Below, piece by piece: positions 2,336 through 46,939 of a DNA stretch of 64,000 nucleotides. Both the position numbers and the translations under genes were made by a program. How positions within the stretch are numbered: position 1 is the stretch's first letter; each line of letters begins with the position of its first letter. Source of the DNA: an uncultured Armatimonadia bacterium (GTDB lineage Bacteria; Armatimonadota; Zipacnadia; CAVVLO01); assembly GCA_963749155.1 (NCBI GenBank), contig CAVVLO010000003.1:320001-384000 (forward strand), read 5' to 3'. The notes under the pieces are model-generated. The model saw nothing but the letters and a program-made list of their open reading frames with translations, was not told where the DNA came from and did not search any database.

Positions 2336-2338
2336 TAC

Positions 2339-2815: not shown

Positions 2816-2875
2816 CAGTGTACCTCGGTTTTATTGAGTTCGCTCAGCCTGTCTGAAACTGCCCCTGCAATCAGT

Positions 2876-3380: not shown

Positions 3381-3389
3381 ATTGGCCTC

Positions 3390-4472: not shown

Positions 4473-5557
4473 CAGGTTACACTCTCCGCGGTCAGAGGGT
4501 CTTGCTTAGCGAAGAACCGCTTCTTCGCCCACAGCGCCACATATACCAGCCCTATGAGCGCCGGCACCTCAATCAGTGGCCCGACGACCGCCGCCAGTGC
4601 CTGGCCCGAGCTGATGCCGAACAACCCAACCGCCACGGCGATGGCCAGCTCGAAGTTGTTGCCTGCGGCAGTGAAGGCGATGGAGGTCGTGTCCTCATAG
4701 TTGCAACCCGAAGCTTTGGCCAGCAGGAAGGCCAGGCTCCACATCAACGCAAAGTAGGTAACCAGCGGCAGAGCAATGCGCACGACATCAAGAGGCAGTT
4801 CGATTATCTTTTCGCCCTGCATCGAGAACATAAGCACGATGGTGTAGAGCAGTCCAACAAGCGCCGTAGGCCCGAGTTTCGGCATCAACACGTTGTCATA
4901 CCAGTCGAGCCCGCGCCGTTTGACCATTATTTTGCGCGTCAGATACCCCGCGACCAGGGGGATACCCAGGAAGACCAATACGCTCTTGGCTATCTGCCAC
5001 ATCGAAACCTCGAAGGCAGCGCTATCTGCGCCAAGCCAGCGGGGCACGACAGTGATGAAGAAGTAGCCCAGCAGCGAATACATCGCTACCTGGAAGACCG
5101 AGTTGATGGCCACCAGCACCGCCGCAAGCTCATTGCTGCCGCGCGCCAGCATATTCCATACCAGCACCATCGCAATGCAGCGCGCAAGCCCGACGAGGAT
5201 GAGTCCAGTGCGATATTCGGGCAGGTCGGGCAGCATCAACCACGCCAGCGTGAACATCAATACAGGACCGAGAATCCAGTTGAGGAAGAGCGACAGGCCG
5301 AAACTCTTTGGGTGACCGGCGAGCTGACCAATCTTCTCATACCGCACTTTGGCAAGCACCGGATACATCATCCACAGCAGGCCAATCGCTATTGGGACCG
5401 AGACATCAGCCAGCTTCACACTGTCGAGCGCAGAGCCGAGTCCAGGGAAGACCTTCCCCAGTCCGACTCCCAGTGCCATAGCCGCGAAAATCCACAGTGG
5501 AAGGTATCTGTCCAGCCAGGAAAGGTTCTTGTATACACTTGTGCCCACAGTTACCAC
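4472..5557 (-). CDS. acr3: ACR3-family arsenite efflux transporter
   Basis: LDRYLPLWI, GLLWMMYP, GLARCIAMV, AAGNNFELAIAVA, VVGPLIEVP. Confidence 0.95.
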   Translation of the reverse strand: MVTVGTSVYKNLSWLDRYLPLWIFAAMALGVGLGKVFPGLGSALDSVKLADVSVPIAIGLLWMMYPVLAKVRYEKIGQLAGHPKSFGLSLFLNWILGPVLMFTLAWLMLPDLPEYRTGLILVGLARCIAMVLVWNMLARGSNELAAVLVAINSVFQVAMYSLLGYFFITVVPRWLGADSAAFEVSMWQIAKSVLVFLGIPLVAGYLTRKIMVKRRGLDWYDNVLMPKLGPTALVGLLYTIVLMFSMQGEKIIELPLDVVRIALPLVTYFALMWSLAFLLAKASGCNYEDTTSIAFTAAGNNFELAIAVAVGLFGISSGQALAAVVGPLIEVPALIGLVYVALWAKKRFFAKQDPLTAESVT

Positions 5558-5571
5558 TTGCCTCGCAACAT

Positions 5572-5621
5572 ATATGCGCTACTACGCATATGTATATATG
5601 CGCATATACGCATATTGTCAA
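5572..5621 (-). promoter_or_regulatory. acr3 promoter with tandem ArsR-type operators
   Basis: TTGACA -35 on the minus strand (5621-5616) followed by two ATATGCG-N6-CGCATAT inverted repeats (5596-5615 and 5572-5591). Confidence 0.8.
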
Positions 5622-5631
5622 GAGGGCAAGG

Positions 5632-5982
5632 TTATTTCGCGCAGCGGAAGTTGATCGAGGCGAGGCGTTCGCGGGCGCGAACGACCTGGGGAGAGACCTC
5701 CCAGACGCCGGCGAGGGCTTCCAGCGCTGGCCGCCAGCGCCTGTCGGCCTCGTCTGTGAGGCGATAAATCGCGAAGGTACCATCCTTCTCATCCTGCACC
5801 AGGCCGGCTTCGCGCAGTACAGACAGGTGGCGCGAGATTTTGTATTGCGGCTCTTCGAGGGCGCCCACCAGCTCGCACACGCAGCACGGCCGTACCAGCA
5901 GCAGGCGGATAATCCGCAGTCTGGTAGCATCGGCCAGCGCCTGGTGTAGTCCGGTAAGCTCCTCGAGGCTGGGCGTTTTCAT
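5632..5982 (-). CDS. arsR: ArsR/SmtB-family transcriptional regulator
   Basis: ALADATRLRII...PCCVCELV...ISRHLSVLREAGLV; start moved to ATG 5982 because the longer ORF runs through a repeat. Confidence 0.9.
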   Translation of the reverse strand: MKTPSLEELTGLHQALADATRLRIIRLLLVRPCCVCELVGALEEPQYKISRHLSVLREAGLVQDEKDGTFAIYRLTDEADRRWRPALEALAGVWEVSPQVVRARERLASINFRCAK

Positions 5983-6021
5983 ACCGAGAGTATCGCTGAG
6001 AAATTGTTGAAGGTCAACTTT

Positions 6022-6200
6022 GGAAGGTTTTGGGAGCAGACTCCCGAAACACGTGAAGGCAAAAGGCAAGGGCGGGCTTGCACCCGCCTTTATAAAGGAA
6101 AATCTAAAGGCAAAAAACCAGGACAGAAGACGTGGGGGTATTACCCCGCACCCCCCATACTGGGCCTGCGGCGCGAAGCGAATCCGGGAGTGCAGAGGGG
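6022..6200. repeat. Mosaic palindromic intergenic repeat, copy 2
   Basis: GGAAGGTTTTGGGAGCAGACTCCCGAAACAC...AAAGGCAAGGGCGGGCTTGCACCCGCC...GGGGGTATTACCCCGCACCCCCC, closely similar to 3009-3075. Confidence 0.8.
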
Positions 6201-7566: not shown

Positions 7567-10500
7567 TGACTTTCAGAGCTTATCGCGTAACCATACAGGA
7601 GCCGGTTGCCCTCCCAGATCGGGGCAGCAGGTTGGAGCCTGCCCTTCCCCACTGGGAACTCGACACGAGCGCTCTCAGCCCGCAGGAGGGCAAGCTCAAG
7701 ATCCTCTGCAACAAACACCGGCCGCCGCATACTGCCCTTCACCTCGGCGAAACGCAGATTCTGCATCTCGGCAACCTGCAGGGTTACAGCCTTGCCAGTT
7801 GGAAGCGCCGGCTTCATCTACAACTTCCACATACGGCTTGCCCTGGAATCGCATTACGCGGAAGAGGGGCTCCAGTTCGTTTGGCTGCAAGCCCAATCCG
7901 GCAGCGAGATCCGCCAGGACGACCTCTTCCGGCCTTGCCTGAAGCAGGAGCTGTGGGCCTTCGACATACTGCTTCAGACCCGCGTTCGCACTGGTGGATA
8001 TACCGGAGATGGCCTGTGGCGCGGGCCACGCGCAGAGCACGGTCGAAGGCCGCCTGGGCCGTCTCGAACTTGCCCGCAAGGCCCCACACCTGCCCAAGGC
8101 GATGGTGGTCGTAGGCCAGCCGGTAGTTGTAACGCCCCTCGGAACGTTTCTCTAGCGACTCCATAAAATAGCGCTCTGCCAGCCCCAACAATTTCTTTTC
8201 TGGTTCTGCGAGTTCAAGATACAGGATACCAAGATGGTGTGCAGCAGACTGCTGCTGCCAATAGTTGGAGCAGTCTTCGCGCACCTCTTGCAGCACTTTG
8301 CGCGCTTCGTCATAACGTCGGGCACGGCGCAGCAAGATGCCCTGATGGTAGAGCGCCCACCAGCACTCTGACGCCGATCTGTCGCTGGCCAAAGGCAGGT
8401 TCTCACGGAGCTCTTGAATACGTTCCAATCCCTCTTCCACCCGGTCGAGATGCTCCAGCACCATTGCCCCTTTAATCATTCCGGCGCAATATTCCTTTGG
8501 CGTGTCATCACGAGCCAGGTCGCGCAGCTTGTCGAAGACGGCAAGCGCCTCCTCGAACTTGCACTCGTTATCGAGGGTCTCGCCCCAGAAGTGTAACAAC
8601 GAAAAGCTTTCGCAACTGGAAAACGCTGTATATAGAGCCTCAGGCCAGCTGTCAGAGAGACCGAAATGCTCTACCAGGGCGCCTCCAAGTCTTATCCTGA
8701 AGCCAGGGCCATCCAGCTCTGTCCAGACTGCCATCAGCGCGTCAGCAACCTCTCGCGTGAACAAGCCAGCCTGGGCCAGTCCACGCAGATCGAAAATCAA
8801 ATTGGAAAACTGCTCTACATCACCTGTTGTTTCAGAATCACCGATCCCGGCACAGCGTTCTCTCAGGTAACGCTGATCTGTCATCAGGCTCAGCAGTCTC
8901 CTGGTATCACCCAGGGCAAGCAGATAGGCAGGCAAGTGGGCGGGAGCGGGTGCCTGCCCTGTGTGCCAGGCCTCCTCTTCCACGTTCGCAAGCCTCAACA
9001 GGCCAGCTTCGATATCCACCCAGAAGCGCCCAGCAGCCTGTTCATCTGTCAACCATTCGGCGAACGAACGATGGAAAGGCTGGAATCCTGCCGCAGTCTC
9101 GAGAAGCAGGGCACCGACGGCTCGCCTGAAGGCAGTAACGTTTTACGAGGCCAACCAAGTAGTTGGCCAACTGGACACTGTCCAAAGGTTCTGAACGGCG
9201 GCAAGAATGAGTTCCAGGGCAGGTTGCCTATAGCTTCATACTGGGCCTGGTCGGGGAATTGTCTTTCGACATACGCAAGCAAAGCGATATCCATTCCGCG
9301 AGGAGTGTTCTGTACGAACTCGACCAGTTCCTCAGAAGTTGTGTCTTCTGGTAGTTTCAGGACATTACTCGCCCAGAGGAAGCTGCCTTCGGCTGCTTCG
9401 GCAAGCTCAGAGAGGACAACTCCCTCGTCTTTACCGAGGCGCACCTCGAAATAACGCTTCAGATCCGCCTGGGTATTCTTATCAGGCAGCAGCTCTATTG
9501 GCTCAACACACCCGGCAAGCCATTGTTTTACCTCGACATGGGGTCTGCTGCTGACTACGAAACGCAGCCAGGAGGGGAGCGAGTCCTGTTTCCTTGCCAG
9601 TAGAGAGGCCAGCTCGTTATTGCCCTGCCGGCTGGCTTCATCCAGCGCGTCAATCACTATTACACGCGACTCGTTAGTGTAGGTCGCCGGTTCGACACAC
9701 GCTCCCCCGACTTTACCACCCTTCCAGGAGGGTAGACTTGGGGCGAAGGGTTGTACCAGCAACTGGTCAAATAGTGTTTCGGTATTACATTCATTTACAA
9801 GACTGGCTAGTTGCAAGCCTGCCAGATGGGCGCTGTAAAGAGGTTCCTGAGAAGCCAACTGGTATGCAAGAGACATAACACAGCGGTTGGGCTTGGACTT
9901 CAGGTCATCTCCCCATCTGCAAAAATGTATAGCTTTTACAGCTTCGCAAGTGCTTGCAATCCAGGCAAGGAAGGCGCTCTTGCCAGTGCCTGGCCCACCC
10001 GAAAGCCAGAAGATGCGCTCCTTGCTCTCCGCAAGCCATTCGTCCACTTTCTCTTCGAGCCAGGGACGCGCTACATAATTCTCAAGATGAGGAGCGAGAT
10101 CTGCTTGATAGGGCAGTGGCTGGAGCACCTTGCGCAGGTTGCTGGTCTGGCTGGTCACAGCCGTCTGGGCAGAGCCTGGAGAGGCAGGTTCTTTCAAATG
10201 CAGGGCATCGCGCAATTGCTGCAAGGCTCGAGTGTATTCTTCCTGGCTTTCATCAGGCGGGAAACACTGCGACATATCAAGCCACTGGATATCACAAACG
10301 AGCAGAGGGGGCGTCACATCGCTGACGACTTTCACTGGTAGAATATGCACTTTCATATTGGATGCATATACAAGCTCTTTCAAACAGAAACTTGGCGGTT
10401 TTTTACAGACAGAATGGGGAGTCATCAGATAAACGACTCGTCCACCTTCTGAATCCTGGGCGACAATATCCAGCTCTGATTCCAACTGGATAGGCCATTC

Positions 10501-10647
10501 GAAGCCTACACGAAGCTGCTTGTCGTAAAAGACACGGTGCCCATCAGCACTCAGATCCTCGGCAAGTCGCTCTGTGAGTTTTGCATACTCGTCATGCCCA
10601 TAACTGATGAAGATGGTGAGGTGAGAGGCTGGCTGGTTTGCTTCCAT
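7557..10647 (-). CDS. TIR-NACHT(STAND NTPase)-TPR protein with a C-terminal extension; split by frameshifts near 9.1-9.2 kb, 7985 and 7810
   Basis: ATG 10647 after GGGGGAGA; TIR motifs IFISYGH, YLMTPHS, FCLKEL; Walker A GGPGTGKS; Walker B VIVIDALDE; the bridging frame reads FQPFHRSFAEWLTDEQAAGRFWVD; TPR helices follow. Confidence 0.85.
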
Positions 10648-10801
10648 GAGTTCTCCCCCGAACCGATGTAGAAGCTGGTGGAGGGATTCGACAGTAAGAG
10701 GTGTGGCCCTGCTTTTCAAGGACGCTTCTCACAGGGGGAAACTCTTCTCATAAGTCGAAATCCAGAGCGCATCGTGAAGCAAGTCTCTGGGAGGAAGCCC
10801 T

Positions 10802-33019: not shown

Positions 33020-35061
33020 TCAATCGAGCAGTGCGGCCTGCATACGCAGTGTCTCGGCGCGTTTCAGAATCACTTCGGCCAGCTTATGAGAGTTGGTCTC
33101 CAGCCGCGCCAGGGAGCCTGGGCTGAAGAGCTTTACCCATTCGGCCGGGACGTTACCGGCGCCGGAAAGGGTACCCGCGAACATCGCCGCGCGCCCGCAG
33201 GTGGTGTCCGCATCACGGCCGATATTGGCCCCGCCGATTGCTGCCTGCCTGACATCGCCCTTCGAGATAAGCAACATCGCAAGCGACAGGCCAAACAGCT
33301 CGAGCGGGTCAATGTGATGGTACATTAGACACTTCTCGTACAGCTCTGGTCGCGCCGCCAGGGGGTCATCGTAGCGAACGGCGATGTTCAAAACACTCTT
33401 CCAGATAATCGTAGGCGCTGTTGAAGCGGGTCTTGTAGAAGACTTGCAGCGGCTCTTTGGGTGCAAAACGCAATATGGTGTTGCAGACGTCCGCAACAGT
33501 CGCGCCAGGCTGCATCGCCCTGGCAACACCTGCCGCAAGGAGCGAGGCGGCCAGGTTGTCGAGGCCTCTCTGGTACATATACGAGATGCACCTGGCTTCG
33601 TAGAAAGCCGCTTCCGGGTCACCTGCGTTGAAGAGGCCGACAGGCTCCATACACATCACGGTAGAGCCGGTCACCTGTGTCCAGTGGCCAGTGATACGCG
33701 GATCCCAGCCAGCCTTGATAAGGTCGTAGCAGTGGCCCATACAGTTGACGAAGAAATGGTCTCGGTTGAGTCTGTCGCGCCAGGTCTTGCCGAAGTCGCG
33801 AGCCATTATTGGACGGTCACAATCGATATAGGTCTCCACCAGGTGCATGGCCATCTGGTTGTCGTCTTCGGACTCCAGCCGTGAGGGGTCGAGGATACCC
33901 TGGATACCACCAGGATACTTCTCATCCACTTCCCACCAGAAGGCGCCCTCGACAGGAGAGCCCATCGCATTGCCAATCGCACCCGCCAAAAGGCAGCCGT
34001 AGACCTTGTCGAAGAGCAGCGTCTCGCCTTCGGGGAGGAGTTCTTCAAGTTCGGTCACAGTCTCGGTGACGATTCCAGCTCCCTGCAACCGCGCGCGAGC
34101 AACTGTCTCAAGAGGCATCCACCCGGCGGCCAGCGGTTCGCCCCACTCTCGCCACTCGGCAGGTAACCCTTCAAGGCCATGCAGCGCGCCAAGGGCGGCG
34201 CCCGCGATGACGGCGCTAACCTCACAGGTGCTCTGAGGCGGCCCGGTCAGGACGCCCATCAGTTCAGTTGGAGAGTCGCCATACAGCCACATCACAGGCA
34301 GCAGCTGGCCGATGGGATCAGGATCCCAATAGCCTTTCAGGGCCGGATTACCGAGGGTCGCGCCATTAGCGAGCCAGCGCGCCAGGAAGCCGCCCTCATC
34401 GTTCACCGCGCCCCACTTGAAGGGGGTGTCCAGCTCGTAGAAAAGGTCGCCGCAGAACTCTCGCGCAAGCTCGAGGACGGTCTTCACCATCCCTTTGGGG
34501 GTAGCGCCAGGCACGAAGGCAGCCGCGATAAGGGCGGCCGAGAGGCCCGCCCAGTCAGCGCCGAGGCGCGGGGCGGTCGTGGAAGCGATTTCCACCCCGT
34601 CGAGATACGCCAGGCACCGGGTCCCCCGCATGGAAAAGTCCAATAGCGGGCATCGCAGCGGTGATATGACCCGAGGGCACGTTGCCGTGACCGACCAGGC
34701 GCGGATTCATCCCCTCGGCGAGCAGTTCCTGGCTGGTATGGAGCATATCCCAGGCAAAGACCGGGCTGGCGACGCCTTCATCGGTTGCGAACACGCGCCC
34801 GAAGTCCTCGGGGGTAAGCCTGCCGTTCGAGGCCAGGCAGGCTGTGATGGCAACGTCGATGAGGGGAGTCATCGGAGCGGACCACTGGCGGTTCGCTTCG
34901 GGCTTCCAGTCGAAGTTGGGCTTCAACTGAAGGCGCTTCATATCTGCTGGAGCCGTGATGTTATACTGCGGCCCCCCAAGAGTGCGGGCAAAACCGAGCT
35001 GCGCGCCAATGGCAGCGCCCACGAGCGCGCCTTTGGCTCTGTCAGAGAAGTCTTTTACCAA
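33020..35061 (-). CDS. ADP-ribosylglycohydrolase-family protein with a degenerate N-terminal copy of the domain; frameshifts at about 34620 and 33375
   Basis: RAKGALVGAAIG; KVYGCLLAGAIGNAMGSPVE; SEDDNQ; NIGRDADT; TTG start at 35061 after GGAGGT. Confidence 0.8.
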
Positions 35062-38000
35062 GTTATTTCGTACCTCCCGGCGCCGGCGATCCCGGCTGTA
35101 AAGGTGAGCCAATCCTGGCTTATTTCGAATTGGACCGGCCCAAGGTCGGCTTGATCGCCTGCGGCAAGCGCCCGCAGCTTCACACTGGCAGGGGCAGGCT
35201 CTCCAGCCAGCTCTGCCAGGTTGAGTCGTATGGTGAAGGCTTTCTCGCGCGGGTAAGGGAAGAGGACCAGCTTGCGGTCGCTCTTGCTCAGCTTGAAGGA
35301 GCCATCGGTCGCGACTTTGCCGAAGTCAACCAAGGTGCCTGCGGGGTTGAGCCCCTCGGTGAAGTCAAGAGTAGCTTTGCCAAGGGCCGCCTTTGCCTCG
35401 AGCGCTGGATCCAGTTGGATATCGGTGATCTGGCCGGCTTCGCGCGTCACCAGCAGGTTGCCCAGCAGCACGCGCCCGCCTGGCAGCACGGGACCTGAGA
35501 GGTTGAGGCGTTCGCCAGAATGCAGGCCGATAACAAACTCGTAGCTGGTATTGGTATCTGCCTCAGGCGCCTCGATGATATACGGCCCGTCCTGGATTAT
35601 ATCGCCTGGCTTCCACTGGCTGGTAGGCACAGGCGGGTCATGGTCCTGCTGGAAGATAATGGTTTCGCGCGCCTCTTTGCGGTCTGACAGGAAGTGCACG
35701 AAACTGTGAAAGTCACGCGGAATCGTATCGTTCACGCGCCATTCATAAACGACCTGGAAGCGGTTGCCCCCCAGATACTGGAAATCCGCGAGCACCGGCT
35801 CGATTTGCTTCGGCGGATGGGCGTAGGGCATATCGAAAGAGGTCCTGGCGTCCGCGAACAGGAAATCGGGGCACTCGGAATAATCAGCCAGCACGCTGCC
35901 ATGCAGGCCCGAGAAGACCTCCGTGCCAGGCCCGAGGGCCAGGATACCCCCACTGGGGCAAGGCGCGCCCTTCGACTTGCCAGGACTCCTGGTTCCAGTT
36001 GACCCAGAGGATAAGCCCACTGTCGTAAGTGATACGCTGGCGGCTGGTGTCGCCGAGGGCCAGGGCGATCTCAATCGGCACCAGTTGGCCCTGCACTTCA
36101 TAGCTGATATCGGTGACTTTGGCCGTCCCATAGAGCCGCTGGGCAGGATGCATCATATGATGCTCTTTGGCGACCCATTGCACATCATCGGTCACCTGGC
36201 TGCCGACGAAGCCAGCGTGGCCATAAGCCAGCTCCTGGGCGCGGTATTTGTCCACCTGGCGCGGGGTGCCCACATTGAAGCCCCACTGGCTGGAATAGCC
36301 CTGGCTGAACCAGCGCTCGTAATAGCCCATCCCGTGGTTGACCATCTGGGGATGTACCTTGAGCAAATCAAAGTCCAGCAGCGGATTATGATGCTCTCCC
36401 CCGTTCACCTGAGCCTCGGTGCCGTCCACAACCCCTGCCCAATAGGCGTGCTGGTTGCCCTCGCCGAACAGCGGCCCCTGGTGAGTGTCGCGTTCATACT
36501 GGAAGAGCTCCGAGTCGCGCAGCACCTTGAGCTGACACATCGCAGCCATCGGCTGGGAAGCCTCGTGATCAAGCTGATGCCAGGGGGGCACGCAACTGTG
36601 GACATCGAGATAGGCGGCAGTAGTCTTGTAGGTGTCGTGGATATAGGGAGAGTTCTCCATCGCGTAGCCAAGCGCGCGATTACACTTCAGCCCAAAGCTT
36701 TGGCACCTGGGTGCCCTCGTTGAACCAGGCGAGTGAGTTGGAACCATCTTCTCGCAGCACAATTGCGCTCGGATCATAGGAGGGCGCATCGGGATAGAGG
36801 TCTATGTAGTTCTCGTGCAGAGAATTCAGATAGCCCACTTCGAGCGCGGCGTTGCCGTATTCGATCATCGCCTCTTCAGGCCCGAACTGCGGATCGGCAG
36901 GGATGTGATCCGGCAGTTTTACGTCGTAGCCATAACGCTGCCAGACGTGATTTATGATCACGGCGTGGTCTACGCCATTGTCTTTGAGGTCGCGCAGATT
37001 GGCCGCATCGCCAATGTAGGTGCCCTCGTGGTGCTTCCAGATATCCAGCATGATGCAGGGGCCGAGGGTAGCAAGATAGGTCGAAGGCTGCCAGGGGATA
37101 TTGGGCAGCACCTCGGCAAGCCGGGGCGAAACAGCGATGTAGCCTTCCTCGTGCAGGGGATTGCGGTTGCCCTCGGTCGTCTTGTCATAGTAGGCAATAT
37201 CTTGCGGACAGTGGGAGGAGCTAGTCTTCGTCCAGTCCAGATAACGGCAGGCAAAGGCTGACTCCGAGAGCAGCATATCCACTTTGCCAATCGGCATATA
37301 AGGCACATAGAACTGCCTGCGCATCCCAATCCCGGCGGTATTGCCCAGGCCAAAGGCGCGGATACGGGCATCTTCGGTGTCGGCAACAACAGTCAGGGCT
37401 TTGCCCTCGATGCCGAAAGTCCAGGTTAGCTCGAGGGGAGTTGCCCCGCACTTGTATTCCCAGACTGCGACCAGTTTTTCACCCTCAGGAGCGGCCTGAC
37501 AGGATATGAGTCTGGCATCGGAGGCCGCCTCGAAAGTGTCGGGCTTATCCGGGTCAGGGGCAAAGAGCAACTGGGCGCCCGCCATAGGGCGGAAGGTCGC
37601 GCCTTCGCCCAGGCGACATGTGAAGTCCTCCAGCCGACCTGTAGTTGGCACGTAGGTATAGACGAGGTTGCAATCGGCGCCCTGGTAGGCGAACTCCCAG
37701 GTCTCGCCCACCTGCCTTAGGGTGCTTGTATGCTCAAGCAAGTTGCCTGGAAAGATGCTGCCTGGCCGATTTGCGCAGGGCACCAGGCTCGCGTTGCGGG
37801 TAGCTTGAAGGGCCTTGCTATCCATAAGCTGAGCCAGCAGCGCTGCCTCGCCGGTTTTCTCGGAGCCTATCGTCAGCTTCGGAGTGCCAAAATAGGAATA
37901 GTCCCAGCTCGCATTGTTATCCGGCCCAGGCTCAACCTGCAGGCGCAGGCCAATCGTGCGCCCAGCATAATCGGACAGGTCGAAGGAGTAGTCTTTCCAC

Positions 38001-38533: not shown

Positions 38534-41500
38534 TCAGGTGTCAAGCAAGCGCGAAAGCCTCAGGCAGAGAGCAGGCTCAAGCTCCTTGAGCTGATGGTCT
38601 TCAAGCAGCTGGAAAGCTTGCGAAGCGAGCTGGAAGGCCGCTTCTCTTTCGCCAAGTGCCTCGGCTACCTCCGCCTGGCCTGTAAGGGCGAGGGTTTGCT
38701 CTTCTATATAACCGTTGGCCAGCGCAAGCTGGAGAGCCTCGGAGAGAGGCGGAAGGGCCTCCGAAAAACGCTGCCAGCCGATGAGAAGCGAAGCCTGATG
38801 GAGCAGCGCAAGGGCGATGCCCCGGGCGTTATGCGCTTCTCGAGCCAGGGCGAGTTGCTGTTCGTGCAATAGCCAGGCTTCCTCGGGTTGCCCCAGGCGC
38901 GCCAGCACTTCGCCGCGGTTGCCAAGCGAGCGTACCAGACCCCGCTTGTTGCCGAGTCGTCGGCAGAGGGCTTCTTCCTCTTCGTGGAGGGCAAGCGCCT
39001 CTTCCAGCAGGCCAATTTTCGCCAAAGCCATCGCTCTGGTGCCGAGGGCCATCCGAAGGCCCTCCAGGTGACCGAGCCGGCGGCAAAGCTCCTCCTGCTC
39101 GCCTAGCAAAAAGAGCGCGGCATCTTCCTGCCCTAGTTGCAGAAGCACCAGGGCCTGTTCATGCAAGGCCGATTGCAGCTCTGCCGGGCCGCCAAGCTTC
39201 CGGGCGAGGGCTTCTTCTCTTTCGAGCAAGGCAAGCGCCTCGCGCAGTCTGCCCTGCCTGGAGAGCAGCCTTGCCTGGTCGCCAAAGCAGGCGAGCAATC
39301 CCCGCTCATCGGCCAGTTGCTCGCACAGGGACTGCTGGCGCTGAAGGAGCTGCCAGGCAGAAGCCACATCGCCCCTGGTATAGTGCAGCAAAGCTTCATG
39401 GCCAAGCGTGGCCTCGAGTTCGGGCAGGCGTTTGGCGCGTCTCGAAACGTTGTTCCAGTTCGGCGAGCAGGGCAAGTGCCTCATCTGGATGGCCGAAGTC
39501 ATCGAGGAGATGGGCCGCAGCGTGCAGCACGCCTTCTGCAAGAGCTTGCCTGTTATCAAGGAGAGGGGCAAGTGAGGCAACCAGGTCGCCCTCTCCAGAG
39601 GCTTCAAGGCGAGCCCAATAGCCTTTGAGCTCGAATTCGTCCCTTGCCCAGGTCGCTTCGAGGATATCCGGCTGTGCGAGCAGGCGCGCGAGTCGTTTGC
39701 CCTGTCCGGCGCGATCGAGTTGCCAGGGCAGTTCCTCTACCTGTCTGTCGTCCAGAGGGCGCGCCTCGAACCAGTCGGCCAGTGAGAGTCGCCACCCAAG
39801 GCCAGCGTCTATTGCCCAATAACGCTGTTCGACGGCGGTTTTGAGCGCGCGATGATAGTAGTCTACCTGTCGGCCTCGTCTCAGTAGCCAGGGGCGAAGC
39901 TGACGCAGGATGACCTGGAGTTCGCCCCGGTCGTCTTGCTGAGCGGTCAGCGAGGCAAGCTCCATCTCGGAAAGACCCGCGCGCGAAGCGGCCAGCAGGC
40001 AGGTCAGCGCCTCCACCAGGGGGGCTCGGAAGTCAAGCTCCAGTCGCTCCAGCACCTGCCCGAACAACCCAGTGACATCAGAGGCCTCGGCGAAGCGATG
40101 GAGGCGCGATTCCAGTTGCTCGAAGGAACCAAAACCACGCAGCTCTTCGAGCGCAACCTGCAGGTAGAGTGGATTGCGCGCGCCAGTATTCGCAAGCAGC
40201 AACGCTTTCTGTCCTTCTTCCAGCGTCTTGGCCGAGAGAGAAGGCAATTCCGCAAGCAGGATTGCTGCCTCTGGCTGGGCAAGTGGGGCAAGCTCGAGCA
40301 CTTCCGCGCCTCTTTTCCTTGCCTCTTCGACAAGAGGGCCCGAGGTACAACTCGCCAGGAGCTTCACGTTGGGAGGCAGCACTTCTGGAAGCCACGGCAA
40401 TCCCAGTTCGAGGTCCCTCTGGTCGAGTTGATCGAGGCCATCGATAATCAGCAGCACTTTTTCGCTCTCGGCCACCAGTCCAAGCGCAGTGCGGAAGGCT
40501 TCCGGCAGGCGCGCGGGGTCTTCAGGCACTTCCATTGGAAGACCGAGAACCTCAACCAGTTCTTGCGTGAGGCGCGCAAGCAATCTCGGCAGGCTGGTAG
40601 ATGCCGCGCTGGCGCCAACAAAATGGGGCACAACGAAAAAGTCAGGCTTATACGCAGCCCAGTCTACATAATGGCGAGCGAGAAGGGCCGACTTGCCAAC
40701 GCCAGCTTCGCCCGTGACAAGCAGAGGCTGAGCGGCCTCGCTGGCGCAAAAGGCAGCAAGTTGCGCAAGCGGCTCCTCCCTCCCCACAAAGACACGCAAG
40801 AGGGCCTCCGCAAAGAGTGAATGAGCGGCGAGTTCACCCGCAAGGGGCAGTTCTGTAATCTCGCCAGTCGTCCCTGCTACCTCGGGGTACCGTGCCGAAA
40901 TGGCCGACCAGAGGTCGTTTTCGACCCTTGTGCCGAATTCTTCGAGGCCGGACAATAACAGTGAGCCATGTTCGAGGAGAGGACTTCGGAGGGCGGCGGG
41001 CAGGGCCTGCCATTCTGCGGGAGAGATAGTCCCATCGCGCGCAAAGGCTTCAAGCCCCTCCAGTTGCGGAGTTGAAAGCAAAGGAGCCACGAGGCGCCAG
41101 TCGAGTTTGAAACCCGCCCAATGGGCTGTATAGCCCTCCATCAGAGGGAAGCCTGACTCGCGCAACCGCTCCTTAAGAACGGCAAGCTTGGCGCGCGCGG
41201 CTGGCTCCTCATCTCTCAGGAGGGGAAGCGCCTCCGCAGGCACCTCGTCCAGCAAGGCCGGATCACGCAGGTAGAAGAAGCTTTGCCCCTTCATTGGGGG
41301 ATTGAGCAGCACGCCATAGACTATCTCGAGCGCCGTAATCGAGCTGCCAGAATAGTCTTGCACCCAGGAATACCGCTGCAGTGTTTCGGGATTTACCCGG
41401 TTCGGCAACCAGCCATAACGCTCACCCAGCAGGCCCAGGAAGTAGGGACGCGTATCACTGGCCTCGGGACGGCAGCGGTCTATCTCGGCAAGGCAAAGCT

Positions 41501-41693
41501 CCAGGACTTCATCTTTCTCGGCTTGCTGACGAGTAACACCCCACCGCAGGTCAATATCGGTGAAGTAGATACGATGAGCAGCGAGACGCTCGCGCAACTT
41601 GGGAAAGACAACCTTCACCAGCCAGTCACGTTCCGCGTGCATATCGCGGAACGTTGAGCTGATGAAAACGCGCACCTCTCGCCAACGCGCCAT
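38534..41693 (-). CDS. DUF4062 (TIR-like)-NACHT/STAND ATPase-TPR protein of NPHP3/TEP1/NWD-like type; frameshift at about 39420
   Basis: VRVFISSTFRDMHAERD, IDLRWGV, CLAEIDRC, LLGERYGW, SITALEI; Walker A GEAGVGKS; Walker B LIIDGLDQ; NPLYL; ~40-aa TPR repeats (LCRRLGNKRGLVRSLGNRG). Confidence 0.9.
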
Positions 41694-41716
41694 CGGCGCC
41701 TCCTCGATGTGAGAGG

Positions 41717-42304
41717 TTAGCCTTCCGGCAGGTTGTGGATTACCAGGGCGCCCTGCTCGGGCCCGAGGCTGGTGGGAGTGCTGGTGCCAGGGATGCGGTT
41801 GCCAGCCTTTATGTGGAGCACTGGTTTACCGGCAGCAAGGGCTTTGGCGACGATCTCGCCAGTGCCTCCCTGCCCCTGAGCGCCCTGGCCATCCCAAATC
41901 GCCACCAGCACGTCCGAGTGTTCGAGGACATACTCGCCCGCCCTCGCATAACCTTCGTTGCGTTCAGCCGCCTCGGGCATCACGACGACCTCGCGGGCGT
42001 GTTCGAGTAGCCTGTCAAACTCGGCCAGGGATTCAGGAGTCTCGAAATCCTGCTCGTATTCCATCTGATCGAAGGGCAAGACGGCTACAAGGCCGCCCCC
42101 AGGGCGATCAATTACCGCCTCGGCGACCAGCCTGTCGGCGCCTTCGGCCAGGGAGGAAAGACAAACAAGTTCGCTGCCCCGGAAGGTGTCTTCCAGCAGG
42201 TCGAGCGCGCGTTCGAGACTGGCCAGCAGTCTGGGCAATTCGGCCAGGAACCGATGGCCGGTGATACCGACATACAAGGATCCAGTAACTTGTTGCATCG
42301 TCAC
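41717..42304 (-). CDS. Stand-alone SLOG (SMF/DprA-LOG, YpsA-like) nucleotide-binding protein
   Basis: VGITGHR, SSLAEGADRLVAE, AVLPF, YARAGEYVLEHSDVLVAIWDG, GGTGEIV. Confidence 0.8.
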   Translation of the reverse strand: MTMQQVTGSLYVGITGHRFLAELPRLLASLERALDLLEDTFRGSELVCLSSLAEGADRLVAEAVIDRPGGGLVAVLPFDQMEYEQDFETPESLAEFDRLLEHAREVVVMPEAAERNEGYARAGEYVLEHSDVLVAIWDGQGAQGQGGTGEIVAKALAAGKPVLHIKAGNRIPGTSTPTSLGPEQGALVIHNLPEG

Positions 42305-45084
42305 TTATGGGCCTCCGAGGGCAGTTTTACCAGGTGGTAACGCAATTCGGCCAGCAGCCCGGGCAGGTTGCGTTCGAGCTGCAGGCTTTTCTCTTTTAAC
42401 TTCTGAGGCAGCGCGTCCTTGCCACACGGCTCAATAAAGCCAGGGCAGTTGTGAGTAAGCCAGTCATCAACCGGTTCGCACCAGGCGCGCAAGTACTCAT
42501 TGAGCTTCGACGTCTTGTCAGGCACAGGAGCAAACTTCCAGCCATCAGCCAGCTTGGCTCTCATCCAGCGGATATGTTCGAGTTCGGCAAGCCTGTCGAC
42601 ATCGTCGTCGGGAAGAGCTTGCGGCGACTGGCCTTCACGTGCGGGTACGATGACATAACCTACTGCTCTCAGGCGGCGCGTCAGATTACGCACTGATTCT
42701 CGATTGGCTTCTTTATCCGCTTCGCCAAGTTGCGCCCAATCAGGATAAGCCCTGGCACCAGATTGAAATACTTCACGATAGTTCTCGTGGGACATCCTGG
42801 CCAGTTGTTCGAGCACCTCGCCGCGTATTTCCAGTGAATCTGCCAGAGCCAGGAACTCGGTGCCATCAACGTGGAGATTAAGCTGCGACTCGAGAGGCAA
42901 GCTCGAACGCTCGAACTTGCGACGCGACGCGAGCAGGCTCATATTGATGAGGGCCTCCAGGCTGCGCACGCCATGGTAGTACTTGCTGACTTCAAGGAAA
43001 GCTCCGAGCACACCCAGGTCCATGTTGAGCTCACCTTTACCTTCAGGTTGCTCGAACAGATGGGCAGCGTTGATTTTGAGCAGCTCGCGCAGAGTGACAG
43101 CCCTGCGGATGACATGGTAGGGGTCTCCCCCATCATGGGTGCGATTCGGCCCCATTATGTCAACATAGCCGCGCAACCGGCTCACAAAGTCAGGCCCTTT
43201 AACCTGGCGGAAGGCTTCATCGCCCCCTTCGAGATTCTGACCGAATTCTGCCATCTGATGACAGGTGCCCCCCGCGAAGACGAAGATGGCCGGCCCGATG
43301 GGATGGGTAATCTGGCCCTCCTGGAAGCTGCCATCCTGCATCGGTGAGAGGAAATAGCGCAACCAACCCAACGGCTGATCGTTGAGGCGGGTGTCGAACT
43401 CGTCCCAGAAGACGAGAGGGACTTTACCGGAGAGTGAGACATCTCTTACCTGATGCAGGGCGTCAAGCAGTTGCTCGGGATCGTTGAACTGCGAAAGATT
43501 GAAAGTCTTTTCTTCCAGTTTGTCCTTCGCAAGTGCGCGCGCAAGCTGCTTGATGCCGAAGGACTTGCCCGAACCAGGAGGGCCAAACACCGCCAGATTG
43601 AGCGGTGGGCTCTTGGGCTTGTCGCAATAACTCCGGATAAGCGAAGCAAGCACGCGATAACTCTCGATTTCGCGCCTGTCTACCACTGTCAATTTGCCAA
43701 AGGTAGCTGTAGGCACGCCTGCAAGCCTGTTGCCCAGGCCGTTCAATACTATCCCCCTGGCGACATCCAGCAAGGGGCTTCCTGATCCGCGAGGTTGCTC
43801 TGGGTCTTCGGAAATCTCTTCGCAACTGGCCTGAAGCAAAGTCCAGTAACCATGCCCTGAGCGAAAGCGTTCGGTTTCTGACCAGGCGATAATCGGAGGC
43901 TGCTCTTTGGTTGGGACGACTTGCGAACCTTGCACCCCACCAAACTGAAGCTCGAGTTCCTCCCTGGGCAAAGTCAGATGGCGCACAGGGTCAGCAATCG
44001 GGGCGACCACAAACGCTTCGGCCGGCTGGCTTACGGTATCCGCGACAAGCTGGAGAGGAAAGACCAGCCGGTCAACATCCCCAGGTTGCTTAACAAGCTG
44101 ATAACCTTCGAGATGCAATTTGCGCATGGCGGCCAGTCCACCTTTTATGGCGGCAGGCCAATCTGGGGTGCTGGTCCTCAGCAACTCCCGGGTGACTGCA
44201 GCTGCCAGGCAGGTGTTATATCCGATTATCCTGCCTTCGAAGCCGGCCTCCCAGGAGCCTTCGATGTTATGCGGATCGAAAATCAGCTTGCACAAGGAAC
44301 TGCCATCCGGCTGCCGCACAAGCAAGAGGCACCCAGCAGCCCGGAAGGTGACGATGACAGCGGCACACTTGGACAGACTGCTGATATCACGGTTATGAGT
44401 GAGCTCCCAGAAGGCATCCTGAGCTGTGCGCTCCCAGGAAAGGGCCCGCGATAACTGCATGCCCGAGGCGCGCAGATCATCTGCAGTCACCAGGACAACC
44501 AGCCGGTCGGCATACGCAGGCACCAGTCGCTCCCAAAGAGGCCCCTGGGCAACCGGGTCAGAGAGCTTGAGCAAGATTGGCCCTTTATACTGCTTGCTGC
44601 TCAAGGCAAGAGGCCAGAGCTCGGGTCGCCTCCTGAAATCGAAACCGGCATCGTCAAGCACAACCAGAGCCGGATCCGGCACATCGTCAACTAACCCACG
44701 CCAACCAGCCAACTCGCTAGTTTCGACATCGCAGCAGTCATCAACTCCAAGCAATTCGTCTACGCGCCAGACGCTAACTCTGGAACCGTTTTCCTTAGGG
44801 TAAGGCTTCCACATTGCGAAGGCATGATGATGATCGGGATCGCCCGGGGCGATTGCAGTCAGCGGCGCCTGAGGTTGACGAAGCTCAAACTTCCCTGGCA
44901 GGCTTGCTGCAACCAGTTCGATGACATCAGCCAGCAAGGCGGCGCCACCTCGCTGCCAACAGGCCCGGATGCCCTTGAAGCCCTCAAGCCTGGCCTCGCC
45001 ACTGGGACAACGCATCATATTCCAGTCCATCGTGACATCGCCCGTTACAACGCAAAGGCGGGCAGCATCCTTACGCTTGCGCAT
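42301..45084 (-). CDS. PfkB/ribokinase-like domain + AAA+ ATPase + tandem RyR repeats
   Basis: VVTGDVTMDW and GGAALLA; Walker A GPPGSGKS; Walker B VFWDEFD; PDFVSRL; HGVRSLE; RyR motifs LARMSHENY and LAELEHIRW...GWKF. Confidence 0.82.
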   Translation of the reverse strand: MRKRKDAARLCVVTGDVTMDWNMMRCPSGEARLEGFKGIRACWQRGGAALLADVIELVAASLPGKFELRQPQAPLTAIAPGDPDHHHAFAMWKPYPKENGSRVSVWRVDELLGVDDCCDVETSELAGWRGLVDDVPDPALVVLDDAGFDFRRRPELWPLALSSKQYKGPILLKLSDPVAQGPLWERLVPAYADRLVVLVTADDLRASGMQLSRALSWERTAQDAFWELTHNRDISSLSKCAAVIVTFRAAGCLLLVRQPDGSSLCKLIFDPHNIEGSWEAGFEGRIIGYNTCLAAAVTRELLRTSTPDWPAAIKGGLAAMRKLHLEGYQLVKQPGDVDRLVFPLQLVADTVSQPAEAFVVAPIADPVRHLTLPREELELQFGGVQGSQVVPTKEQPPIIAWSETERFRSGHGYWTLLQASCEEISEDPEQPRGSGSPLLDVARGIVLNGLGNRLAGVPTATFGKLTVVDRREIESYRVLASLIRSYCDKPKSPPLNLAVFGPPGSGKSFGIKQLARALAKDKLEEKTFNLSQFNDPEQLLDALHQVRDVSLSGKVPLVFWDEFDTRLNDQPLGWLRYFLSPMQDGSFQEGQITHPIGPAIFVFAGGTCHQMAEFGQNLEGGDEAFRQVKGPDFVSRLRGYVDIMGPNRTHDGGDPYHVIRRAVTLRELLKINAAHLFEQPEGKGELNMDLGVLGAFLEVSKYYHGVRSLEALINMSLLASRRKFERSSLPLESQLNLHVDGTEFLALADSLEIRGEVLEQLARMSHENYREVFQSGARAYPDWAQLGEADKEANRESVRNLTRRLRAVGYVIVPAREGQSPQALPDDDVDRLAELEHIRWMRAKLADGWKFAPVPDKTSKLNEYLRAWCEPVDDWLTHNCPGFIEPCGKDALPQKLKEKSLQLERNLPGLLAELRYHLVKLPSEAHK

Positions 45085-45100
45085 AGGTTTACCTCCAGAA

Positions 45101-46888
45101 TCAAGCCTCAGGCTTTGAGCACTCGCAGTTCGGTGCTCCAGACCGGCAGAGTTCCAGGCCGACGGTGCCCAGCAGGCGCGGCAGGCCCCTTATGGCAGCG
45201 CGATTCTTCTCGCGAGTGGTTTCCTGAAGTTCTCCCCATTCCAGCAGGTCGGGATGAGTCTTGCGTCGAGAGTCCTTGGGACCAGGGGCATACTTCCAGC
45301 CCGACTCTTCACGTTCCTTGCGCCAGCGAGAATGCTCCTTTTGGGCCACTTGCTCAAGTGTTGCTTCATCCAGCCGATACTGGCCGGCATCCAGCCTGGT
45401 CAGAGCGCGGATCCCAAGCCCTGCCTCGGCAAGCAACTGACCAAGCGCGTCGGCCTGGGTGCGGTTGGAGTCCTGCAGTCGTTCGGGCAACTGGCTCCAG
45501 GGCACGAGGGAGGAGTTGGTCTCGGGCGTATCGCCAAGCTTCAGGGCCTCGGCGACATATTGCTCGTGCAGGGCCCTTGCTAGCAGCTCATGGCCGCTTG
45601 AAAGCAGCTGCTCGGGCGTGCAGGCGCGTTCCAGCAAGCCGAAGACCTGCAGCCGATAAGCTTTATGATCGGGCGTACTGACCCGCAGCAGAGCAGCCAG
45701 GCCGTTTTCTTCCTCAAGCCTCACGATGATGGGGGCATCAGATTCGGGCAGCTTGGGCTCGAGTCTTAATGCGGCAGAGACTGCAAGCGGTTCATCGTCC
45801 AGGCATATGAACACCGAGGTCAGTTTGACGCCAGGCTGGGTAGTGAGGAATTCGGCCCTGTGGAACTCGACCGATTCGAGACTAAAATCGCGCGTTGTGA
45901 TCTCGAGGACTTCCTCAACCAGAGGCAGCCGGGTCACCAGGGCGGTCAGACGTTCGGTTGCGTATCTGTCTATCAAGGTTACGAAAGGCTTGGGAGCGCC
46001 TTCCGGCGCCAGAGCTTGCCACTCTATCGCGAGCTGGGAAAGCAGGCTCTGTCCAAACTGACCGAAGCCAACAATCACAAGCGCTGGCCTGGTTGGCAGG
46101 TCCATCGGTAAGGGGCGCGTCTGGCTGAGCAGCACGCGGGCGCCTGCCTCAAACAGATTGAAATACTCTATCCTCAGGCCACTTTCGGCAATTGTGTTGT
46201 AACTCTGCTCGCGCAATAACTCGTAGAGCAGTGGATCGGAGATATGGGCAAAGCAGGTCGCGCGCGGCCCGGAGTTTTTCAGGACCAATTCTCGGCATCT
46301 AAGGGCAATTTCGGCGTTAGAGCCCGCAGGGCCGCAGACAGCGAGGATGTAGCGCGCCCTGGCAACGCGCGCCTTGCGCAGCAGCTCGGGCTCGGTCGCA
46401 TCGCCGTGCAATACGATGGCCCCCGCGTGCCTTGCGGCTTCAATCCGGTCGTTGGCTTCATCTCGCTCGATAATGACAACTCTGAGGCCATCTTTCAGGA
46501 AGGCGCGCGCCCAGAGCAGCCCCTTGCGTCCCAGGCCACAGATGACTATATGGCCAGAATAACGACGCAGGCGCAGGAAAGCGAGTTCCTCGGAGAAGAG
46601 CAACGCCACAGCTTTTACAGCAGTGAAGCCAGCTACAAGCGGAGCAAGCCAGCGAGCCAGTTCAAGCAGAGGCGGGATGGGTCCTTCCAGCGAGCCGGAT
46701 TCGAGCACGAAGAGCTGCAGGGTAAGGTAAAAAGCGCCTGCCAGCGAGTAGGGAGTGCCGGCCTCGAGCCCCTGCTCCAAAAATCCCACTAGCCCAGCAA
46801 GCGTGGCAATCCCCCAGACGAGGGCGACCAGCCACCCCTGCAGGTCGCGCACGAACTCCCAGAAGCCCCCGAGGCGGCCGCTAGCCAA
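45101..46888 (-). CDS. 2TM channel-like protein with two RCK/TrkA_N domains and tandem RyR repeats
   Basis: TM1, pore-helix-like AFYLTLQLF, TM2; HIVICGLGRKG, GDATEPELL; LVIVGFGQFG; LARALHEQY...LVPWSQL...SNR; AQKEHSRW...GWKY...KTHPDLLEWGEL. Confidence 0.87.
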   Translation of the reverse strand: MASGRLGGFWEFVRDLQGWLVALVWGIATLAGLVGFLEQGLEAGTPYSLAGAFYLTLQLFVLESGSLEGPIPPLLELARWLAPLVAGFTAVKAVALLFSEELAFLRLRRYSGHIVICGLGRKGLLWARAFLKDGLRVVIIERDEANDRIEAARHAGAIVLHGDATEPELLRKARVARARYILAVCGPAGSNAEIALRCRELVLKNSGPRATCFAHISDPLLYELLREQSYNTIAESGLRIEYFNLFEAGARVLLSQTRPLPMDLPTRPALVIVGFGQFGQSLLSQLAIEWQALAPEGAPKPFVTLIDRYATERLTALVTRLPLVEEVLEITTRDFSLESVEFHRAEFLTTQPGVKLTSVFICLDDEPLAVSAALRLEPKLPESDAPIIVRLEEENGLAALLRVSTPDHKAYRLQVFGLLERACTPEQLLSSGHELLARALHEQYVAEALKLGDTPETNSSLVPWSQLPERLQDSNRTQADALGQLLAEAGLGIRALTRLDAGQYRLDEATLEQVAQKEHSRWRKEREESGWKYAPGPKDSRRKTHPDLLEWGELQETTREKNRAAIRGLPRLLGTVGLELCRSGAPNCECSKPEA

Positions 46889-46939
46889 GGTCCCCCCTCC
46901 CTGCTGGCAGATTCGCCAGCGCGGGAGGGATTCCTGCTA

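Follow-up and report, generated by a model that had tools for sequence, protein, structure and literature searches.

Thoeris, the phage RyR-domain proteins known as RyDEP and the antiviral proteins with a DUF4062 domain are the closest described systems to a four-gene cluster that we analyzed in the genome of an uncultured Armatimonadia bacterium (assembly GCA_963749155.1, contig CAVVLO010000003.1, positions 320,001 to 384,000). This whole stretch of 64,000 nucleotides (nt) is called the window below; all coordinates are positions in it, and all four genes of the cluster lie on its minus strand, between 38534 and 46888. They encode a membrane protein with RCK and ryanodine receptor (RyR) domains, an ATPase that also ends in RyR repeats, a SLOG protein and a DUF4062-NACHT-TPR protein. 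We conclude that the cluster represents a genuine modular system that is conserved and uncatalogued, and what would be new in it is the use of RyR-R12 and SLOG receptors in TIR/Thoeris-type signalling based on nicotinamide adenine dinucleotide (NAD). We consider it fairly probable that it works as a modular, Thoeris-like system with an NAD-derived signal, most likely antiviral, because DUF4062 is a NADase and the RyR domains of phages act on cyclic ADP-ribose signals by binding or cleaving them, both as reported in preprints of 2026.

The accessible part of a recent Thoeris survey (bioRxiv 10.64898/2025.12.03.692087) describes 29 putative types; type I has the SIR2-SLOG protein ThsA and the signal 3' cyclic ADP-ribose (3'cADPR), type X combines a TIR protein with a predicted ion channel, ThsK, and TIRs inside Avs proteins were discarded. 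Phage RyR-domain proteins (PF02026, RyDEP) cleave or sequester 2'/3'cADPR, and in the crystal structure of RyDEP linear ADP-ribose (ADPR) is held by H75, W78, H100 and D117, of which the first and the last form the catalytic dyad (PMC13232231); RyR effectors encoded by the host are not discussed in the available text of that preprint. DUF4062, renamed NIR, is presented in two further preprints (bioRxiv 10.64898/2026.09.04.749371; 10.64898/2026.05.01.722283) as a TIR-like NADase that yields ADPR and nicotinamide and is found in NIR-Avs2, NLR-like proteins, Vulcan, Vesta and Swarozyc; RyR, SLOG, TrkA or channel partners have 0 mentions in the accessible sections of both. Among the matches listed for literature since 2019 on the RyR domain or PF02026, the RyDEP work alone concerns prokaryotes or immunity, and no publication pairing 'SLOG domain' with 'RyR' was found in a search that did not cover Burroughs et al. 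2015.

Organization of the cluster and domain content of its products

The genes and their domains are as follows.

45101-46888, minus strand: gene 1, membrane protein of 595 amino acids (aa), Pfam TrkA_N 74 bits, RyR 50.2 bits in 2 stretches
46559-46837, minus strand: transmembrane (TM) region of the predicted channel, aa 18-110 (family alignments)
46205-46549, minus strand: RCK/TrkA_N domain of the predicted channel, aa 114-228 (Pfam PF02254, E 1.6e-20)
45152-45367, minus strand: second RyR repeat of the predicted channel, aa 508-579 (Pfam RyR)
42301-45084, minus strand: gene 2, ATPase of 927 aa with a PfkB/ribokinase-fold N-domain, an AAA+ core and C-terminal tandem RyR repeats
43990-45060, minus strand: PfkB-like domain, aa ~9-365 (model of the first 400 residues, pLDDT 89.6)
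42304-42837, minus strand: tandem RyR repeats of the ATPase, aa ~750-927 (alignment and column counts)
41717-42304, minus strand: gene 3, stand-alone SLOG protein of 195 aa, YpsA-like clade (AF2 model, pLDDT 95.8)
38534-41693, minus strand: gene 4, DUF4062 (NIR, TIR-like NADase)-NACHT-TPR protein, a STAND/NLR-like sensor (Pfam), read in two frames, 39396-41693 and 38534-39607
41382-41672, minus strand: DUF4062/NIR domain, aa 8-104 (Pfam, 50.3 bits, cut-off 24.7)
40251-40727, minus strand: NACHT NTPase, aa 323-481 (PF05729, 48.3 bits, cut-off 26.7; AAA_16, 56 bits)
39437-39437, minus strand: single-base difference that breaks the NLR frame (sequence, tblastn, sediment-run contig)

A preliminary description made from the letters alone had reported four co-oriented genes, each with a ribosome-binding site, and the sequence confirms every part of it: on inspection the 16-nt junction between genes 1 and 2 holds GGAGG, genes 2 and 3 share a GTGA start/stop overlap with GGAGG upstream, and the 23-nt junction between genes 3 and 4 contains GAGGAGG. 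Gene 1 starts with TTG, again with GGAGG ahead. Scanning the cluster for sigma-70 promoter and terminator consensus sequences gave no signal over shuffled expectation. An imperfect inverted repeat, CCCTCC...GCTGGC / GCCAGC...GGAGGG, without a T-run, is located at 46893-46935 (minus strand), past the stop of the glycosidase-like gene upstream and ahead of the ribosome-binding site of the channel gene. The domain assignments of that description were upheld for all four products by Pfam, profile and structure searches, the difficult ones (SLOG and the pseudo-PfkB fold) included.

The product of gene 1 has about two TM segments and a re-entrant-like segment, followed by tandem Rossmann/RCK domains and a C-terminal tandem of RyR repeats of R12-like type. 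In profile searches of the PDB its RCK part matched the RCK domains of TrkA, MthK, KefC and GsuK, and profile positions 18-193 are collinear with residues 23-196 of full-length MthK, in which the RCK domain comes after two TM segments (2TM). The Pfam RyR score lies well above the gathering cut-off (50.2 vs 27.4 bits), and with phmmer the repeat matched R12 of human RyR3 (E 3e-13) as well as chain 35tm_A (query 96-141 vs chain 74-118); a tblastn comparison of the repeat with 50,697 phage records returned no match. Atlas clusters of gene 1 homologues bear the name 'RyR/TrkA-N domain-containing protein'. The TM part has the family consensus YLTLQL..LESG..GP.PWEL..ARFL.P, with LESG at the position of the TVGYG filter; a K+ selectivity filter (TVGYG) was not found in the family. 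Because LESG replaces TVGYG, Ion_trans_2 was detected in 0/21 members at E <= 1 and the TM-only profile had no PDB match at E <= 10, an RCK-regulated pore can only be predicted, and we regard the product of gene 1 as a putative ligand-gated pore or channel effector. The earlier designation of this protein as an ion channel is therefore tentative. A CNG-like 'GE' filter was considered for this pore and dropped, as no tool supported it.

Homologues of the ATPase encoded by gene 2 are numerous (554 at E <= 0.001), and among the 120 listed identity is 42-46% over 95-100% of the query. Its N-terminal domain had no match to Pfam PfkB, and Foldseek comparison of the model with the PDB placed it with the ribokinase/PfkB-family kinases, which made up all of the top 50 matches (E ~1e-9, TM-score 0.37-0.59). 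Family alignments show many invariant polar residues and a SWERTAQD motif in this domain; at the position expected for GAGD the consensus reads PGGMIGYTSCL (judged by eye), with no evident GAGD catalytic motif. In the core, Walker A (GPPGSGKS) and Walker B (VFWDEFD) are invariant in an alignment of 20 ATPases; every match to Pfam AAA-type models fell below its cut-off, including weak matches to classic-AAA P-loops, and when the AAA region was compared with the PDB, matches were at the level of the P-loop only. The RyR part of the window protein scores 23.2 bits, under the cut-off of 27.4, and its first repeat has a 16-aa deletion in the alignment; the family profile matched RyR2 with E 2.8e-21. 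When residues 400-927 of the ATPase were co-folded with the SLOG protein, in a run made without controls, the score was 0.00, which is evidence neither for nor against an interaction.

Gene 3 has no Pfam match, and its alignment profile found nothing meaningful by sequence in the PDB. The structural model was compared with Foldseek and matched YpsA (2nx2, E 1e-7), followed by DprA, ShosA, LOG, the MoCo carrier protein and TRPM2/4/5, ADPR-bound TRPM2 structures among them, with probability 1.00 for YpsA, DprA, LOG, MoCo carrier and TRPM; the family motifs GxTGHR and GGTG are invariant or almost so.

Gene 4 has an N-terminal DUF4062, a central STAND NTPase and C-terminal repeats (TPR_12, 47.6 bits, cut-off 30.1), as in NIR-NLR and Avs-like proteins. 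An alignment of 19 sequences displays the invariant DUF4062 pattern FxSSTFxD...ER...DLRWG...GxRxGW; the invariant glutamate is E21, and the candidate catalytic residue E103, within the range E98-E108 where the catalytic glutamate of tested proteins lies, is semi-conserved. Compared by tblastn with a homologue that is a single ORF (open reading frame) of 1,039 aa (L065), the gene stays in frame -2 as far as 39483, and its alignment continues in frame -3 at 39382. A 383-nt contig of an unrelated sediment run, X4, is 98% identical, with one letter fewer at 39437 and 7 other differences, which suggests that one base fewer at this position would join both frames. We grade this repair as suggestive because it comes from one contig, at a depth of ~4, contig cover from runs X1-X3 being absent or partial there. 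Either an assembly error or a polymorphism between strains may account for the break in the frame.

Predicted ligand pocket of the RyR repeats

The ligand-holding residues of RyDEP were mapped to the second RyR repeat by their spacing and by the phmmer end-points to chain 35tm_A, assuming an offset of +1 in chain numbering, and were counted in 73 homologues of the ATPase and 20 homologues of the channel.

ATPase homologues: H75 site, H in 73/73; W78 site, W in 69/73; H100 site, H in 59/73; D117 site, D in 73/73
Channel homologues: H75 site, H in 20/20; W78 site, W in 17/20; H100 site, H in 8/20; D117 site, N in 15/20 and D in 5/20
Channel of the window: H519, W522, H545 and N562 at the H75, W78, H100 and D117 positions
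ATPase of the window: H, W, N and S at the same positions, the S being unique among 74

This pattern suggests that the pocket of the channel is a binder, its catalytic Asp being replaced by Asn, and that the pocket of the ATPase family, which keeps the full His/Asp dyad, is possibly catalytic, with some decay in the window protein. The window copy of the cluster may thus be partly degenerate, having a frameshifted NLR and two conserved pocket residues of the ATPase lost. RyR repeats in two of the genes had been noticed at first reading and treated as a shared curiosity; the observation stands, and the RyDEP work together with the residue conservation makes these repeats the likeliest signal receptors of the cluster.

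Linkage of the gene families across genomes

Searching with the alignment of 20 ATPases, at least 536 relatives were obtained in contigs taken at one genome per species, and the best 80 loci were used for the census. By their record titles these loci come from Chloroflexota, Acidobacteriota, Planctomycetota, Actinomycetota, Gemmatimonadota, Ignavibacteriota and Bacteroidales, with one Deltaproteobacteria record and two archaeal records of metagenome-assembled genomes (MAGs). Neighbouring genes were clustered by blastp on 1,034 greedy ORFs from the 80 loci, and the recurrent families were SLOG proteins (33 short and 9 long forms), a STAND/WD40 cluster (34 loci) and the channel (23 loci); beyond these, no family exceeded 6 loci, and the only others to recur were two minor ones, one found in 6 loci and one in 5. 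Partners were counted with profile hidden Markov models (HMMs) on stop-to-stop ORFs, in all 80 loci and in a subset of 31 whose flanks extend for at least 9 kb on each side.

SLOG gene: 49/80 (at most 300 nt from the ATPase in 46/80); subset 18/31
Channel, full-length homologue: 26/80; subset 10/31
NIR (DUF4062) gene: 29/80; subset 14/31
TIR gene: 32/80; subset 10/31
NIR or TIR gene: 52/80 (at most 5 kb away in 51; one on the same strand in 43); subset 21/31
All three partner types: 13/80; subset 6/31
No partner: 10/80; subset 4/31

The gene families are genomically linked across phyla, and the co-occurrence of homologues, for which the preliminary description had proposed a survey of gene neighbourhoods, is strong. 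What that description had called a four-gene unit holds as a linkage group but not as a fixed set, all three partner types being present together in 13 loci and TIR being as common a partner as the DUF4062-NLR. Members of the STAND cluster have DUF4062 or TIR_2 at their N-termini, the rest being WD40 fragments and one sigma factor, and all of the further TIR-HMM matches that were checked (18/18) are Pfam TIR_2. The sensor genes beside the ATPase/SLOG/channel module always begin with a NADase-type domain, TIR or DUF4062, and at their C-terminal ends the TIR partners carry TPR, WD40, LVIVD, SBP_bac_5, DctP, CBM, GH43_C2/ConA-like or choline-binding domains.

As a control for chance proximity, TIR_2 and DUF4062 were searched in the whole genomes of the first five full-flank loci. 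Matches within the 22-kb locus were 3/3 for TIR, 1/1 for TIR, 2/2 for DUF4062 and 0/4 in four of these genomes, the fifth having no match; in total 6/11 TIR_2/DUF4062 matches were inside loci that cover ~0.6-1.1% of each genome. The window's own genome has 4 matches to DUF4062, 1 of them in the cluster, and 4 to TIR_2, 1 of them at 28 kb; its channel is single copy, and RyR occurs at the cluster locus only. The distribution is patchy, with 11/40 other genomes of the same class positive and the channel present in 23/400 other genomes of the same phylum.

The window neighbours (ORFs of 611, 301, 358, 608, 914 and 366 aa and an ADP-ribosylglycohydrolase) were considered as parts of the system and rejected, their homologues being found in 0/80 related loci. 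Since the flanking genes have no relative in these loci, the cluster appears as an insert-like unit among unrelated genes, in agreement with the placement first described.

Channel-centred loci and exchange of domains

An independent sample was centred on the channel, and consisted of 20 loci fetched from the 23 channel-bearing genomes among the 400 of the same phylum. A SLOG domain was found in 13/20 of these loci, 8 of them having forms of 660-780 aa, TIR in 10/20, NIR in 2/20 and either of the two in 11/20. A true ATPase was present in 2/20, in both cases as an in-frame fusion with SLOG: L115:10837-14391 (1,185 aa) and L118:11991-14612 (874 aa), the latter with SLOG in place of the RyR module. 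Small single-repeat RyR proteins (~100-146 aa) occur in 9/20 loci, and the 3/3 that were tested score 110-125 bits with PF02026; they lie at L114, L121-L125, L127, L128 and L130 (e.g. L125:6549-6848, L127:11061-11498). These host proteins, of the size of RyDEP, may act as buffers or degraders of the signal.

Further exchanges are seen in the ATPase-centred loci, where SLOG is fused to SLATT. Five RelA/SpoT-TPR proteins (L007:17706-19490, L008:12722-14785, L012:12810-14690, L031:12700-14733, L046:3270-6155) directly follow the ATPase, in the slot of the small SLOG gene, with a weak LSDAT-type SLOG end in 3/5 and RyR in L046; this swap suggests an alarmone-synthetase output. In L003, L010, L013, L024, L034 and L079 (e.g. 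L013:13189-13968) a 260-aa protein with TM segments and TrkA_N, without RyR, comes after SLOG and appears to be a reduced form of the channel. From the SLOG-SLATT, RelA/SpoT-TPR-SLOG/-RyR and ATPase-SLOG swaps it follows that RyR and SLOG behave as interchangeable sensor modules.

Comparison with described systems

PADLOC v2.0.0 (E <= 0.01) gave no system match for the cluster and no Thoeris model; its matches there were a weak mad8 P-loop and a generic TPR, nothing else, in keeping with the initial remark that this gene combination was not recognized as a named system.

Of the Thoeris systems described as types I-XI, types I and X are the closest, ThsK of type X being compared by its description only. 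The likeness lies in a predicted signal generator of NADase fold encoded beside effectors with a ligand-sensing domain, and SLOG has been documented to read 3'cADPR; in Thoeris the effectors are often membrane or pore proteins, and Thoeris islands too have multiple TIR genes per locus. Thoeris effectors carry a signal-binding domain, and here the SLOG fold of gene 3 and the RyR-R12 repeats of genes 1 and 2 are predicted binders. Unlike in Thoeris, the putative generator is fused to an NLR (NACHT-TPR) and is DUF4062 and not a ThsB-type TIR, although TIR_2 takes the same position in 32/80 loci; the receptors are of RyR-R12 type, a term ('RyR') that occurs 0 times in the main text of the survey, and the PfkB-fold/AAA+ ATPase has no counterpart, 'ATPase' and 'AAA' also occurring 0 times there.

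With RyDEP the RyR modules of the cluster share Pfam PF02026 and, in the mapping given above, the H/W/H/D pocket spacing; the ATPase family has its His/Asp dyad, whereas most channel homologues resemble non-catalytic binders in having Asn. The phage proteins, as far as the available preprint text describes them, are small counter-defence enzymes or sponges, whereas those of the cluster are encoded by the host and fused to a membrane protein and an ATPase, and we propose a receptor role for them. Two structures of 100-aa Bacteroides proteins annotated as 'putative ryanodine receptor' (3nrt, 6uag) group with RyDEP as the closest RyR proteins.

Gene 4 shares with NIR-Avs and Vulcan-type proteins, as described in the accessible parts of the DUF4062 preprints, its N-terminal DUF4062, STAND NTPase and C-terminal repeats, and by analogy it would be expected to convert NAD+ into ADPR and nicotinamide once activated; its reading frame is not intact in this assembly. 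The published NIR proteins are single genes or are accompanied by a phosphatase and deplete NAD+, whereas here NIR is an interchangeable sensor of an RyR/SLOG module.

The folds of both ligand modules of animal RyR and TRPM2 proteins, R12 and SLOG, are found here alongside a NADase-type domain. In TRPM2 the N-terminal SLOG/MHR1-2 region binds ADPR. The pores of animal RyR and TRP channels are unrelated to the pore domain of the cluster, which is 2TM plus RCK and collinear with MthK, and SLOG is a separate protein here. In the framework of Burroughs et al. 2015 (NAR), SLOG proteins of the YpsA clade are reportedly predicted to sense or process NAD/ADPR-derived signals, and SLOG-SLATT fusions are said to be part of it. 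The accessible part of a later article (PMC6459960) cites the same work on nucleotide-centric conflict systems.

Proposed mechanism and alternative explanations

Building on the observed linkage, domain identities and residue conservation, we infer a mechanism that would run as follows. The TPR arm of the DUF4062-NACHT-TPR protein would recognize a trigger and its NACHT domain would oligomerize, and the NIR domain would cleave NAD+ to ADPR or a derivative. An ADPR-type ligand would occupy the R12-type pocket in the RyR domain of the 2TM-RCK protein, the pore of this protein would open, and the cell would be depolarized or its membrane perturbed. The PfkB-fold/AAA+ ATPase might read the same ligand with its RyR module and perhaps cleave it, and together with the translationally coupled SLOG protein this ATPase could form a second effector or a unit for signal processing or reset. 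An order in which SLOG and the PfkB/AAA protein pass the signal to the channel had also been put forward; our analyses gave no evidence of such a relay.

Several observations weigh against a Thoeris-like, antiviral role. The flanks of the cluster itself are glycan enzymes; they encode glycoside hydrolases, a nitroreductase and the ADP-ribosylglycohydrolase. The 80 loci represent the nearest relatives of the query, come mostly from MAGs and do not form an independent sample; ten of them (four in the subset) have no partner, and in 28/80, many on short contigs, no TIR or NIR gene was seen. In the control, the genome with 0/4 matches has its nearest TIR gene ~7 kb past the edge of the locus, and another genome was without any TIR_2 or DUF4062 match. 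Three homologues on plasmids, from cultured Clostridium, Methylobacterium and Streptomyces, are solitary, as judged from the incomplete PLSDB annotation. Solute- and carbohydrate-binding domains on several TIR partners fit environmental sensing equally well. PADLOC matches at E <= 1e-10 amounted to 13/131 flanking proteins from 13 loci, counted without a control, and clear restriction-modification (RM), SspH-like or HerA genes were present in 3/13 of the flank-surveyed loci, the flanks being mostly non-defence. The window ATPase has no equivalents of RyDEP H100 and D117. Finally, in the accessible parts of both DUF4062 preprints NIR is an NAD+-depleting effector acting alone, not a signal maker.

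The main rival explanation keeps the same chemistry and makes it a physiological second-messenger pathway, in which the TIR/NIR arms would sense the environment or the state of the cell, and RyR/SLOG-gated membrane proteins would serve to adjust ion flux or dormancy. Such a role agrees with the SBP_bac_5, DctP, CBM, GH43_C2/ConA-like, choline-binding and LVIVD domains of the TIR partners, with flanks that are mostly non-defence and with a search of 2.9 million viral contigs with the ATPase alignment, in which 11 pattern matches and 0 relatives were obtained. The patchy occurrence within the class (11/40) and the phylum (23/400) speaks against it, as do the traits of conflict systems displayed by these loci, namely sensors that are multiplied and diversified per locus, STAND/NLR architectures and SLATT pore fusions; moreover, DUF4062 and TIR proteins tested to date act in phage defence, according to the available portions of the preprints. 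Taking both sides together, we judge a purely physiological role to be rather unlikely.

Another explanation divides the cluster into two unrelated adjacent units, a self-sufficient, NAD+-depleting, Avs-like DUF4062-NACHT-TPR protein and a separate triad of channel, ATPase and SLOG. Defence genes tend to cluster, the published NIR-Avs, Vulcan and Swarozyc proteins need no partner effectors in the accessible descriptions, 28/80 ATPase loci are without TIR or NIR, and three plasmid copies are solitary, all of which would be expected for independent units. Independence would leave unexplained that 3/5 control genomes keep all their TIR_2 or both their DUF4062 genes in this locus, that the partner is always TIR or NIR, two NADase folds, with no other defence family recurring, that the junction to gene 4 in the window is only 23 nt long and includes a ribosome-binding site, and that the effectors bear two domain types known to bind TIR products; we therefore hold a chance neighbourhood to be improbable.

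A housekeeping module for K+ or ion homeostasis, in which NAD(H) or adenine nucleotides would regulate an RCK channel with its accessory ATPase, is very hard to sustain: the RCK/TrkA_N domain and the collinearity with MthK would suit it, as would the binding of NAD(H) or ATP by the RCK domains of Trk/Ktr systems, but the protein has no K+ selectivity filter and its family no Ion_trans_2 (0/21 members), it was found in just 23/400 other genomes of the phylum, as a single copy at the sole RyR locus of its own genome, and it is linked to TIR/NIR and SLATT genes.

If the favoured reading, a Thoeris-like antiviral system with an NAD-derived signal, is true, host-encoded RyR-R12 domains would be a new class of immune-signal receptors, Thoeris-type signalling would extend to NLR-fused and DUF4062 generators, and two unstudied types of effector would be added, an RCK-RyR pore and a PfkB-fold/AAA+/RyR machine. 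The cluster may be a bacterial precursor of the pathway in animals that links cyclic ADP-ribose to the ryanodine receptor, and it could offer a testable bacterial model for two questions, the cADPR/ADPR site on animal RyRs and whether eukaryotic NLR-like NIR proteins signal or deplete NAD+. The ATPase family, with at least 536 genome matches, is widespread and wholly uncharacterised, and it has homologues on plasmids of cultured strains.

A wider reading, which we put forward only tentatively and regard as doubtful as a whole, is that of a complete bacterial pathway leading from a NADase through an ADP-ribose-type messenger to an RyR-domain-gated channel. R12 and the SLOG of TRPM proteins would then be inherited receptors of TIR/NIR nucleotides, NIR-NLRs the signal generators and the RyR module of the ATPase a host glycosidase that clears the signal. 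If so, R12 would be the long-debated cADPR/ADPR site of animal RyRs, and DUF4062/NIR domains on NLR-like proteins (human TEP1, NWD1, NPHP3) would feed dedicated receptors, beyond NAD+ depletion.

Neighbouring genes and other observations

The ADP-ribosylglycohydrolase gene (33020-34643, minus strand) lies 4 kb downstream of the cluster and consists of two overlapping ORFs, 33366-34643 and 33020-33622, possibly because of another frameshift; its theme fits ADPR, yet a homologue was found in 0/80 related loci. Between it and the cluster, the ORFs at 35055-36131 and 35884-36789 (minus strand) overlap on the same strand, have no Pfam match and may represent a further frame break, and this overlap is a hint of indel errors in the assembly.

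On the Methylobacterium sp. FF17 plasmid pA (L134), a very large protein annotated as SIR2-family occupies positions 1-6022, 1.4 kb from the solitary ATPase homologue, and a transposase and an HTH gene separate the two.

At 28 kb from the cluster the window also encodes a 556-aa TIR_2 protein (9049-10719, minus strand; TIR match at 10255-10614), which, compared with the fetched loci, is most closely related to the TIR-STAND protein of L046 (E 1e-44).

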